Shown here in pieces: positions 1 to 21,072 of a stretch of 21,072 bases of DNA (positions are counted from its first letter, which is position 1; each line of letters starts with the position of its first letter). This DNA comes from a virus. Taxonomy: Duplodnaviria; Heunggongvirae; Uroviricota; Caudoviricetes. Below the pieces are notes generated by a model. It was not told where the DNA came from and did not search any database. It saw nothing but the letters and a program-made list of their open reading frames with translations. Location of the stretch: positions 1 through 21,072 of IMG/VR virus record IMGVR_UViG_2648501437_000019, one strand, 5' to 3'. The position numbers were made by a program, and so were the translations under genes.

Positions 1-84
1 CACGAATATAATGGTGGGTTACCCCCAAACGAATCGGAAAATCGATACTGGAAAAACTCTAACGCGGTGGCCAGTTTTTGTTGA
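1..84 (+). CDS. IS3-family transposase OrfB, C-terminal fragment (partial, window-truncated)
   Basis: Frame 1 translates to [27 protein letters not shown] then TGA at 82-84, identical to the C-terminus of the minus-strand transposase ORF at 20594-21072. Confidence 0.85.
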   Translation, partial: HEYNGGLPPNESENRYWKNSNAVASFC

Positions 85-92
85 CCACTTCA
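1..92 (+). mobile_element. IS3-family insertion sequence (IS911-like), 3' portion with terminal inverted repeat; 5' part lies outside the window
   Basis: Bases 1-95 are the exact reverse complement of 20583-20677. Terminus ...CCACTTCA at 92 matches the TGAAGTGG... end that I recall for IS911 (from memory, not searched). Contains the transposase 3' end. Confidence 0.8.
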
Positions 93-770
93 ATTCTACC
101 TTTCGCGCCCATTCAGGTTACTGTGCCTGGTTTTTCTTGGAAGCGTGCGATTGACAAAGAGGTGCTAAGAGTTCACATCAAGACTCTCCAGCAATTGCGT
201 GAAATTTCAGTCTCACATAGAGACATTGCTGTAATCTTAGAACACATAAACAATAATCGTGACCGCACAATTCTCGATCCATCGCATTTGGAGGACGAGA
301 TAAGTAAGACCTATAAGCTTACTAGTTTTGTGATGGGCAATTACATTGAGTTTCAGACAAAAACGGTTAGCGACAGAGCATACGGGGAAGCTAAGTTTCT
401 GGCATTTGCAGCACTTTTGTTGTTCGTGTCAGATTGGGACCTCAACATTGCTATTGGTAAGTTTTCTAAGATTGCCAGAGTGAAGGAGGTTGATGACATG
501 CTGGCTGGTAATTTCATTGGTCTTAATCCTTACTTCCGATACGACCTGGCTAATGCAGTGAAGAGATTGCAGGATAACTGGCCGATTGAATACCAAGAGT
601 TGGAGCATTGGAATGTTGAGAAATCCATGCGTGACGCATATGAAAAGTGGCGTGCGACAGAGCCTGAATTCGCTCCACCCCTATTGCCAGACTTGTATAT
701 TGCCAAACATGAGAAAGAAGTCGCACAAGACGAGCAAGTCAGGCAGTGGATTAAGAACGGGGATGTTTGA
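78..770 (+). CDS. hypothetical protein; start uncertain, possibly 5'-truncated by the IS insertion
   Basis: 693-nt ORF whose first 15 nt lie inside the IS (junction at 92/93). The listed start at 78 is TTG; first in-frame candidates after the junction are GTG at 123 and ATG at 333, neither with a convincing SD. No recognisable motifs. Confidence 0.45.
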   Translation: MLTTSILPFAPIQVTVPGFSWKRAIDKEVLRVHIKTLQQLREISVSHRDIAVILEHINNNRDRTILDPSHLEDEISKTYKLTSFVMGNYIEFQTKTVSDRAYGEAKFLAFAALLLFVSDWDLNIAIGKFSKIARVKEVDDMLAGNFIGLNPYFRYDLANAVKRLQDNWPIEYQELEHWNVEKSMRDAYEKWRATEPEFAPPLLPDLYIAKHEKEVAQDEQVRQWIKNGDV

Positions 771-899
771 GTGTAATTAGCTTAATCAATCAGTTGATAA
801 TGGCGGTCACAATTTGATTCTTTTCTATAAGAATCCGTTGATCGCCACTACTCTTCTTCCATACCTGCAATCACACCTTTAAATATCAATAGGTTAGCG

Positions 900-1660
900 T
901 TGTTTATACCAATAAGAAAACAACTAAATAACAGATCAACGAAACGTCAACGCTTTCACCCGATTTGGTCTAAAAAATTGACGTTTTCACACATCACTGC
1001 TTATACCCGTAACTCTACGCAGCAGACAGCGCCACAGAGTCCAATTTTCACCACAGACGACTCAACACACTACCAACAAAAACACACGCTCAAAATCGCT
1101 CCCGCTGCGTTACACAACCATATAAACAACATATTTTCAGGTATAACAAAACAACTAAATAACACATATGCCATTCCCCAAAACAACCAACCTCTTTATG
1201 GCAGGCTACCGAAAAGACCCACCTCTTCTCCCCAGGCTACTGGACAACCAACCTAACTTTCACAGGCAATCCGAAAACATTCATACGCGCGATACCCACG
1301 ACACGCCATTCCCCAAACAGCGAAGAAACACCAGAATCACTGAAACCCCAACGAAGCCTGTAACCGCAAGGATTCTCTCAATCCCAAAAGACTCGAAGCA
1401 TAACAATCACGGGAAACGCCATTACCCAATACACGAATAACTACAAAAGCCTTTCACACACTCCAGACAAACAACTCAAACACAATAACGAAAGGAATCG
1501 CCCACCTGCCATTACTCCATACACGGAGAAGAACAATCACCAAAACGACGAGAACACCCCATAGAAGAACCACCGCAAAACGAACGAAACCACATACACC
1601 GACAGAGAAAACAACACACCCAATTCACCAACAGAAATAGTCGCCGTATAGAACATTCTG
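900..1660. other. G-depleted, A+C-rich non-coding tract
   Basis: The plus strand is about 77% A+C and 10% G in one hand-counted 60-nt stretch (1441-1500). The only ORFs (900-1256, 1168-1440) are low-complexity P/T/Q/N/H-rich with no SD; no minus-strand ORF of 60 aa or more. Contains a 16-bp direct repeat AAACAACTAAATAACA (about 917-932 and 1148-1163). Confidence 0.6.
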
Positions 1661-1752
1661 GAAGGAGTGAGCATTAACGCCTATAGAGAGGTTGAGACAG
1701 ATAAAACACAACATGTATAGCGAAGAAGCCAGGTATGTATAAGTGGGGAGGG

Positions 1753-1777
1753 AAGGAGGGGTGTCGCCTCCTTTTTC
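1753..1777 (+). terminator. putative intrinsic terminator
   Basis: Hairpin AAGGAGG (1753-1759), loop GGTGTCG, CCTCCTT (1767-1773), running into TTTTT (1772-1776). Confidence 0.5.
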
Positions 1778-1840
1778 GTATTTATTCAACTCCTGATTTT
1801 ATCCCCCCGTAACACCCCTACGGTCAGCCTTCGGTCCATA

Positions 1841-19122: not shown

Positions 19123-19147
19123 CATCTAAATCAAAGGGAATTGATAG

Positions 19148-20023
19148 ATGCCATTACTGCGTGAAGAAGCTGAAAAGCTGTCTAACAACGAACTTGAACA
19201 GGGTGTGATCGAAACTATCATCGATCGCGATGACCTGTTTGCCATCCTGCCTTTTATGAAAATTAATTCAAAGGCATATCTGTACAACCGTGAAAAAACG
19301 CTGAGTGAAGCTACCTTCATCGACGTTAACGACACCATCCCTGAAGGTGCAGCAACCTTCGAAGAATGCGTTGCGAAACTGCGTATTCTGGCTGGTGACG
19401 TAGACGTTGATAAATTCCTGGCGACCACTATGGCCGACACCAACAACCAGTTGGCTATTCAGGTTCGTCAGAAAGTTAAAGGTCTGGCTCGTGCGTTCCG
19501 TCGCAACCTGATTTTGGGTGACTCCAGCTCCAACAACAAGGCGTTTGACGGCATTCCACGCCTGATGCACGCAGATCAGAAGATCGATATCGCCGGTGCA
19601 TCTATGACTTTCTCTATGTTCGACGAACTGGTCGATGCGGTGAAAGATCTTGGTGCTGACTGCATCATGATGCGTTCAGAGCACCTGCGTGCTTACCGTG
19701 CGCTGCTGCGTACAGTAAATGTAGGTCCGTCTGAAATCATGATGGAGAACTTCGGTCGTCCGATGCTGTGTCATAACGGCGTTCCGTTCATCATCAACGA
19801 CTTCATCCCGACCGATTCTGGCAAAGCAAGCATCTACTGCCTGCATCTGTCAGAAGAGAACGGCGTTACTGGTCTGTATGGCGGCGACAACGCAGGTATC
19901 GTTGTTGAAAACATTGGTACTGTACAGAACAAAGACGCAGTACGTACCCGTGTGAAGTGGTACTGCTCTCTGGCGAATAAGCACGATAAGGCTATCGCTG
20001 CACTGACCAATGTAAAAATTTAA
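19148..20023 (+). CDS. putative major capsid protein (291 aa)
   Basis: Follows the scaffold gene and is followed by the strongest terminator in the window; SD AAGGGA. Called on position only. Confidence 0.6.
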   Translation: MPLLREEAEKLSNNELEQGVIETIIDRDDLFAILPFMKINSKAYLYNREKTLSEATFIDVNDTIPEGAATFEECVAKLRILAGDVDVDKFLATTMADTNNQLAIQVRQKVKGLARAFRRNLILGDSSSNNKAFDGIPRLMHADQKIDIAGASMTFSMFDELVDAVKDLGADCIMMRSEHLRAYRALLRTVNVGPSEIMMENFGRPMLCHNGVPFIINDFIPTDSGKASIYCLHLSEENGVTGLYGGDNAGIVVENIGTVQNKDAVRTRVKWYCSLANKHDKAIAALTNVKI

Positions 20024-20056
20024 TCAGTGAAGTAGATAAGTAATTATCTATGTTAA

Positions 20057-20084
20057 AGGGTGGGCTATACGCCCACCCTTTTTG
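20057..20084 (+). terminator. strong intrinsic terminator after the capsid gene
   Basis: AGGGTGGGC (20057-20065), loop TATAC, GCCCACCCT (20071-20079), then TTTTT. Confidence 0.8.
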
Positions 20085-20096
20085 TAGGAGCGAGAA

Positions 20097-20588
20097 ATGC
20101 CAGAACAAAAGATGAAGATTACGGAAGAGGCATTTTCGGATTTTACGGGGCATATGTGCCGTGCCGGATTTACCAATTCTATCTCCGATGAACCTTTAAC
20201 CGAGCGGCAACAAAGTCAGCTATCTGCTTGTTTGCAGGCGGTTCCCCTCTCCCAATCCGTAAACATAACCCCGGCTTCACCGTCAGTTTTGGTTGGGAAA
20301 ACTGTTCAACTTAGTGCAGGTATTAGTATGGGTAAGAGTGCCAGTTCATTCACCTGGAAGTCAGCAAATGACCAAATTGCAACCGTTAATGGCACTGGAT
20401 TAGTAACTGGCGTAGCACCAGGCAAAGTAAAAATTACTGCAACTGATCAGGAAACCCAGCTTTCCGCGTCAGTGGAAGTCACCGTAAATCCGGTAGCCGT
20501 TCAATCCGTAACGGTAACGCCAGACTCAACCTCTGTTGAGAAAGGGAAATCAGTCAGTCTGAAAGCGAATGTTCAGCCGTCAAATTGA
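20097..20588 (+). pseudogene. Ig-like (Big_2) domain structural protein, 3'-truncated by IS insertion
   Basis: Big_2-like repeats (TVQLSAG..., FTWKSANDQIATVNGTGLVTGVAPGKVKITATDQ; a second repeat begins AVQSVTVTPDS). The reading frame ends at TGA 20586-20588, which is the first 3 nt of the IS terminus. Confidence 0.7.
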
Positions 20589-21072
20589 AGTGGTCAACAA
20601 AAACTGGCCACCGCGTTAGAGTTTTTCCAGTATCGATTTTCCGATTCGTTTGGGGGTAACCCACCATTATATTCGTGCGGTCTTAGTGCGCTGTAATATC
20701 CAACGATATAGTCCGTTATGGCGTGAGCTGCCTCGCTGAAGCTTACGTAACCCACCACCGGCATCCATTCGTTCTTCAGACTCCTGAAGAAGCGTTCCAT
20801 TGGGCTGTTATCCCAGCAGTTTCCGCGCCGGCTCATACTCTGCGTGATCTGGTATCGCCACAATAACTGCCGGAACTGCCTGCTCGTATAATGACTACCC
20901 TGATCGCTGTGGAACATCACCCCGCCGGGTTTACCACGGGTTTCCCATGCCATTTCCAGCGCTTTCATGGTGAGCCTGCTGTCCGGCGAGAACGACATGG
21001 CCCAGCCCACTGGTTTTCTTGCGAACAGGTCGAGAACAACGGCGAGGTACGCCCAGCGCTTACCCGTCCAGA
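20586..21072 (-). mobile_element. IS3-family insertion sequence (IS911-like), partial, inverted relative to the copy at 1-92
   Basis: Terminus TGAAGTGGTCAACAAAAACTGGCCACCG at 20586; 20583-20677 is the reverse complement of 1-95; encodes the OrfB C-terminal region. Confidence 0.85.
20594..21072 (-). CDS. IS3-family transposase OrfB (DDE integrase core), partial; extends beyond the window
   Basis: The minus-strand frame is open to the window edge ([23 protein letters not shown]...[10 protein letters not shown]...[16 protein letters not shown]...), consistent with the IS3-family DD(35)E catalytic region. Confidence 0.85.

Follow-up and report, generated by a model that had tools for sequence, protein, structure and literature searches.

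A viral record that ends in two inverted IS911 copies is probably a short-read contig of an SSU5/Cyrano-like phage-plasmid

Introduction

The tailed-phage record IMGVR_UViG_2648501437_000019 of IMG/VR (21,072 nucleotides (nt), analysed in full and called the window below) begins and ends inside the same insertion sequence (IS), present in opposite orientations. Does the phage packaging and head DNA between the two IS ends represent a decayed or rearranged prophage or a composite-transposon-like unit, as an initial annotation made from the letters alone had proposed, or something more ordinary? We consider it rather likely that the window is a short-read contig of an SSU5/Cyrano-like phage-plasmid which carries two inverted copies of IS911 with their right ends facing each other.

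Results

Both arms of the inverted repeat are right ends of IS911

A repeat search of the window revealed a single long inverted repeat with arms at positions 1-95 and 20583-20677, each 95 nt long and 100% complementary to the other, exactly as the initial annotation had described. A perfect inverted repeat of 95 nt is impossible by chance in 21 kb. In BLAST, positions 20583-21072 matched 4,033 of 5,426 complete E. coli genomes, in which the corresponding features are annotated as IS3-family or IS911 transposase. Comparison with the annotated IS911 of E. coli D1 (L002, 1502-2750) revealed 0 mismatches over the 487 nt of 20586-21072 and 0 mismatches over the 92 nt of 1-92, the latter being the reverse complement of 20586-20677. 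The D1 element is flanked by the 3-bp duplication CTT, and its frameshifted transposase coding sequence stops 8 nt from the TGAAGTGGTCAAC... terminus. Both window arms therefore correspond to the right inverted repeat (IRR), the orfB-distal end, and face inward, which bears out the earlier statement that the same IS right end faces the phage DNA at both sides. The terminal inverted repeat starts with 5'-TG, in agreement with the IS3 family. Moreover, a partial product of 158 amino acids (aa) at the right end of the window matched the domains PF00665 (rve) and PF13683 (rve_3), that is, the 3' part of a DDE transposase.

The left arm contains the last 92 nt of IS911 on the plus strand (1..92), with the IRR terminus ...CCACTTCA at base 92. 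The right arm contains the last 487 nt on the minus strand (20586..21072), where the IRR terminus TGAAGTGG begins at 20586 and the 3' part of the transposase gene leaves the contig. The window thus holds about 39% of one IS911 copy and 7% of the other and, because each copy has one IRR, at least two inverted copies adjoin the segment. The innermost bases of the repeat, ATT (93..95) and AAT (20583..20585), are the first and the last phage bases and presumably the 3-bp target site of the left IS and the target site of the right IS, respectively: every relative matches exactly 93..20585. The repeat was lengthened from 92 to 95 nt by coincidence, the chance of which is about 1/64. Its outer limit, base 1, is the end of the contig, and the true repeat presumably comprises the rest of the IS. 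The earlier claim that genes are interrupted at both IS termini was correct to the exact terminal base, the boundary between IS and phage DNA being located 3 bp short of the inner end of each 95-nt arm.

An outward-facing TTGACC motif is located in the IRR at 81-86 and at 20592-20597, 6 nt from each junction. In IS circles this motif is the -35 box of the junction promoter. No hybrid promoter was predicted from the left motif and the left flank, in which a matching -10 box was missing. The right flank was checked for a -10 box by eye only and contained a weak GAACAT.

Circular phage-plasmids match the inner DNA, and the window equals one complete draft contig

The inner 20,493 bp (93-20585) matched the circular plasmid p2 (NZ_OZ121086.1, 110,246 bp) of isolate 368_BP0078 in one piece with 98.9% identity. 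At least 80% of the window is carried by 186 complete E. coli genomes, and among the matches listed as best all are plasmids of about 108-240 kb. In a phage collection the best matches were the Escherichia phages CMS-2020a, PhiR41_1 and Cyrano (95-98%; Cyrano 97.7%), followed by Klebsiella phage-plasmids (~80%) and then by Salmonella phage SSU5 (82.5% over 32% of the query). SSU5 has given its name to a type of phage-plasmid (PMC7969092), and strain LF82 harbours Cyrano, an SSU5-like phage-plasmid with about 5.5 copies per cell and siphovirus particles (PMC9928086). Judged from these alignments, the inner DNA appears as a collinear 20.5 kb slice of a circular SSU5/Cyrano-like phage-plasmid of ~110 kb, a temperate phage kept as a plasmid.

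An exact-protein look-up with the product of the truncated Big_2 gene described below identified the window as contig JHSO01000062.1 in its full length (21,072 bp), which is part of the E. coli draft assembly GCA_001266005.1. Both contig ends are located inside the multicopy IS911, the usual stopping place for short-read contigs, because the element is repeated in the genome and the assembler is unable to pass it. The left arm of 95 nt is exactly the sequence common to both junction paths (AAT plus 92 nt of the IS), and the right end reaches 487 nt into the IS. Such arm lengths would be expected if a de Bruijn assembler had worked with an overlap of 95 and had used the IS edge once. In relatives, the genes for the tail terminator, a Big_2 tail tube protein and the tape measure protein directly follow the Ig-like gene at the right end of the segment. 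Tail, lysis and integration functions had been called missing and taken as signs of decay; their absence is more probably an effect of the contig ends, with the other genes, such as the tail module, lying beyond them. An integrase is not needed in the SSU5-like family, which replicates as a plasmid and does not integrate. The collinear match to a circular, non-integrating phage-plasmid thus contradicts the proposal of a decayed or rearranged prophage.

Each IS911 copy interrupts a gene

At the left junction, the open reading frame (ORF) at 93..770 on the plus strand is the 3' part (codons 172-396 and the stop codon) of a 396-codon accessory gene (phrog_12525) which was cut in frame by the left IS. 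Codons 1-171 are absent, which accounts for the initial remark that this gene lacks a convincing start, and the retained C-terminal part is 100% identical to WP_021533330.1. A chimeric ORF of 230 aa (78..770, plus strand; RefSeq WP_252322746.1) starts with TTG at position 78. It is probably not a real gene, because this start falls inside the IS end.

In other lineages, too, the 396-codon gene is interrupted: an IS5-type element with the duplication CTAG is inserted 17 nt upstream of the position that IS911 occupies in the window (L011, 1270-2500), and another sample has an IS1-type element about 100 nt upstream of this position (L010, 1190-1960). The gene seems to be dispensable and repeatedly hit, the look-up used having favoured sites in that stretch.

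The gene truncated at the right junction encodes an Ig-like (Big_2) head structural protein (20097..20588, plus strand; RefSeq WP_252322747.1). Its ORF at 20097-20585 comprises codons 1-163 of a gene which has 307-310 codons in relatives, and codon 164 is the IS911-terminal TGA at 20586-20588, which serves as the stop codon, as had been noticed in the initial annotation. The cut is located after the first Big_2 domain. Comparison with intact relatives had been suggested as the way to find the rest of this gene, and they indeed hold all 307-310 codons with the tail genes next to them. The Ig-like head gene is present in single copy and in plasmids only.

In several other phage-plasmids, including the closed plasmid CP146383.1, frameshifts split the Ig-like head gene into ORFs of 126-213 aa and 95 aa (L015-L024). 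Loss of the full-length protein is therefore frequent, and plasmid maintenance probably does not require it. Contigs of other lineages end 1-4 nt from the right IS site, and no long exact repeat within the Ig-like gene, or common to this gene and the tail Ig-like gene, was found that would explain such contig breaks. An insertion hot spot at this site was considered and rejected: partial products of the gene span 103-183 aa, and those of ~163 aa had been selected by the look-up.

Both junctions recur in independent read sets

A Logan contig of SRR19671065, common to 4 samples, reproduces the right junction exactly and stops 27 nt into the IS. For the left junction, a prediction was made beforehand. 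Because both junctions share AAT plus the IRR, a left-junction contig assembled with k=31 was expected to have its first base 27-28 nt inside the IS and to encode an edge product of 234 aa. The predicted product was found in 5 Logan contigs (SRR5006421 and 3 similar ones, and SRR35194382), and the left-junction contigs open with 28 nt of the IS followed by ATTCTACC. Identity to the window amounts to 99.98-100% in the junction-bearing Logan contigs, as compared with 98-99.5% in other phage-plasmid lineages. The Logan contigs pass into the IS unbranched, and the insertions therefore look fixed in those samples. Neither junction was found in 5,426 complete E. coli genomes or in 72,556 PLSDB plasmids, and a degenerate pattern for both junctions gave 0 matches in IMG/VR, in the metagenomes of the Joint Genome Institute (JGI) and in the GTDB representative genomes.

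The far sides of the two IS911 copies

The lineage is also represented by two SKESA assemblies (GCA_025249065.1 and GCA_012557915.1), in which the segment forms a 20,485-bp contig which starts at window base 97 and differs from the window by 1 mismatch in 3,674 nt. Both assemblies have the N-terminal part of the cut 396-codon gene as well, on separate contigs. An identical N-terminal contig in GCA_039687215.1, an assembly that probably belongs to this lineage as well, continues upstream into backbone genes of the phage-plasmid. DNA to the left of the IS was therefore retained in the lineage.

What lies directly behind the left inverted repeat (IRL) of each copy was approached by prediction. 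A simple insertion with a 3-bp duplication at the left site predicts an N-terminal product of 172 aa that ends with ...TTPDI and is followed by the TGA of the IS; this prediction is firm, since five relatives do not differ from each other in their first 172 residues. In terms of contig ends, clean insertions predict ...CCTGATATT joined to TGAAGTGGCACAC (IRL) and GTGTGCCACTTCA joined to AATGC..., and uninterrupted, IS-free joins would read CCTGATATTCTACCTTTCG and GTCAAATGC(G/A)AC.

The results of these searches weigh against a history of two simple insertions. The predicted 172-aa product was not present in a collection of 15 billion proteins. Fusion products were also calculated for target duplications of 0-12 bp at either IS end (IRL or IRR); exact look-ups with them gave none for the IS-containing contigs of the lineage, and a homology search that used the first 173 aa as the query gave no useful match. 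Likewise, the right-hand IRL junction was not recovered, and none of the predicted C-terminal Ig-like fragments was lineage-specific; a 95-aa C-terminal fragment is on record mostly in elements with the frameshifted gene. Moreover, the N-terminal contigs of the same-lineage SKESA assemblies end with ...CCTGATATTCTA, six bases past the IS site, and a near-identical Logan contig ends with ...ATTCTACC, neither of which is predicted by a simple insertion. The presence of the whole phage-plasmid in the strain of the window itself is suggested by the sister assemblies.

Altogether, the N-terminal contigs (L038-L042 and L027) end at window-equivalent positions 92, 98 or 100, that is, 0-8 nt past the IS911 site, and two of them (L039 and L040) belong to assemblies that also contain the segment contig. 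The sister-assembly N-terminal contigs thus overlap the segment by 6-8 nt and not by 3. Coexisting uninterrupted copies, end handling by the assembler or a non-canonical event are the options for this overlap.

Related phage-plasmids carry a chromosomal-type apbC (mrp)-metG segment that adjoins a DUF5983 gene (L001, 1-2856). In the same-lineage contig L039, chromosomal yehBCDE-apbC and the 5' part of metG are joined to the plasmid-type 3' part of metG, the DUF5983 gene and the N-terminal part of the 396-codon gene. Contig L038 has phage-plasmid genes upstream instead; both contigs are identical over 2.64 kb and diverge inside metG. This arrangement hints at recombination, possibly integration, at metG.

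Gene content of the segment

Gene functions were taken from the annotation of a relative, from Pfam matches and from PHROGs. Downstream of the cut accessory gene, the accessory and regulatory region of the phage-plasmid (771..9710) contains small hypothetical genes and an unannotated stretch of 1.5 kb (771-2332). It includes a gene for a FljA-like regulator on the minus strand (7030-7554; Flag1_repress, PF03614). FljA is the repressor of phase-1 flagellin; the gene is annotated alike in SSU5 and could be a moron that acts on host motility. A DEAD/DEAH-box helicase gene (9713..11272, minus strand) is followed on the plus strand by two genes with a ParB-N domain, an ABC-type ATPase and a partner protein of 296 aa (11337..14252). 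The replicon itself is located outside the window. The packaging and head module (14724..20023, plus strand) comprises genes for a DNA-binding, small-terminase-like protein (14724-15356), the large terminase (15356-16612), the portal (16639-18213), the scaffold (DUF6651; 18235-19122) and the major capsid protein (19148-20023). No tRNA, tmRNA or Rfam family was found within the window.

Two further features of the accessory region were observed. Positions 900-1650 contain ~750 nt that have no annotated gene in relatives, are rich in A and C and show an extreme strand bias (GC skew to -0.52, AT skew to +0.57). This stretch is conserved in related plasmids and has no Rfam match, and its only ORFs give low-complexity products. 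A 31-nt unit, consisting of AAAGCGCCCATAGTGGGCGCT and a T-rich tail, occurs in two copies (5556-5586 and 6053-6083) that are 90% alike. Both contain a GC-rich hairpin and are probably terminators that flank small minus-strand genes at 5582-6036.

Discussion

The evidence favours a phage-plasmid contig delimited by two IS911 copies. One copy disrupts the 396-codon accessory gene and the other truncates the Ig-like head protein; the rest of the phage-plasmid would lie on other contigs. Elements of the IS3 family normally move singly, via a circle that joins IRL to IRR (copy-out/paste-in), and the two copies may have arrived by separate insertions of this kind. Homologous recombination between the inverted copies could then flip the 20.5 kb segment. 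Two simple insertions, the flipped isomer derived from them and a replicative inversion have the same four joins of flank to IS end and are indistinguishable from the junctions.

The strongest competing explanation, which we regard as unlikely though worth serious consideration, adds to the two insertions a further IS-mediated change at the IRL side of the left copy, for instance a deletion next to it or a recombination event that involved either the chromosome or a further IS911 copy. The element would in that case be rearranged and not just the carrier of two clean insertions. This explanation would account for the absence of the reciprocal N-terminal fusion product in every predicted form, and the chromosomal-type yehBCDE-apbC-metG link of contig L039, as compared with L038, suggests recombination between element and chromosome in this lineage. 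On the other hand, the N-terminal part of the gene and the upstream backbone are kept in sister assemblies, which argues against a large deletion there. Absence from a protein index is weak evidence, and ends of short-read contigs are hard to interpret.

A mixed population, in which IS-bearing and uninterrupted copies of a multicopy phage-plasmid coexist or in which a second, uninterrupted left region is present, is improbable. The 6-8 uninterrupted bases past the IS site in same-lineage N-terminal contigs, as well as the about 5.5 copies per cell of Cyrano-type elements (PMC9928086), would agree with such a mixture. Neither the Logan contigs nor the window, however, branch at base 93 or 20585, where the IS meets the segment, and the contig ends are not where a k=31 fork between intact and IS-bearing alleles would fall. 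We also give little credence to a more far-reaching proposal, namely that, owing to the inverted IS911 copies, the packaging-head block of 20.5 kb can be inverted by recombination or mobilised as a unit, within a phage-plasmid that exchanges DNA with the chromosome at the captured apbC-metG, and that the left overlap of 6-8 nt represents a non-canonical IS911 event or stable heteroplasmy.

Still less probable is the composite-transposon-like unit of the initial annotation, or a captured remnant, meaning that 20.5 kb of head and packaging DNA was placed between inverted IS911 copies in another replicon and the rest of the phage was lost. It would be in line with the inverted IS copies that bracket the segment and with IRL sides that were not recovered. 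No occurrence of the segment outside the usual phage-plasmid surroundings was seen, though, and among the matches listed as best it is always in its normal collinear place in a plasmid. Neither junction occurs in the complete E. coli genomes, the plasmids, IMG/VR, the JGI metagenomes or the GTDB representatives, and nothing therefore indicates that the segment moves as a unit. Sister assemblies keep backbone DNA beside the cut gene, and the single-copy mode of movement of the IS3 family does not favour such a unit either.

Finally, the terminal inverted identity as the product of a chimeric or hairpin contig end, which the initial annotation had named as the result that would overturn it, is scarcely credible and was ruled out: the left arm length of 95 resembles a k-mer overlap and both contig ends are in a repeat, but both joins are located at the exact terminal base of the IS and recur in independent Logan runs and with other assemblers.

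For the phage-plasmid contig with two IS911 copies, the consequences are mostly practical. Inverted IS ends on a draft contig mark an assembly break induced by a repeat and not a decayed prophage or a new transposon, and genes absent from a contig of this kind should not be counted as losses. The window is an ordinary case, namely a well-known IS, present twice, in a well-known type of phage-plasmid, viewed through the end effects of a draft contig. It is only mildly unusual, in that one IS is located within a head structural gene and the reciprocal junction at the left side was not recovered. Gain and loss of IS among phage-plasmids of the SSU5 group has already been reported (bioRxiv 10.1101/2025.09.12.675607). 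According to a survey, ISEc9-borne resistance insertions avoid the conserved structural-gene region of such phage-plasmids, and the IS in the head gene is slightly unusual for this reason. The truncated Ig-like protein could affect virion decoration, and a packaging-head block between inverted IS copies could allow inversion, a modest and local observation.

With regard to known systems, the arrangement shares with composite transposons of the Tn10/Tn5 type two inverted copies of one IS around a DNA segment, but in the collections searched there was no evidence for a duplication around the whole unit nor for the unit in another context. The 487 and 92 nt of the IS are identical to IS911 of Shigella and E. 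coli (IS3 family), including the terminal TGAAGTGG... repeat, with no sequence difference in the part present. In gene order and sequence, including the packaging-head module, the window matches the SSU5-like phage-plasmids (pLF82/Cyrano, CMS-2020a and many plasmids of ~110 kb, as well as Salmonella SSU5 and pHCM2). From these relatives, as represented in complete genomes and PLSDB, the lineage of the window is set apart by IS911 in the accessory gene and in the Ig-like head gene, neither insertion site being shared by any of them.

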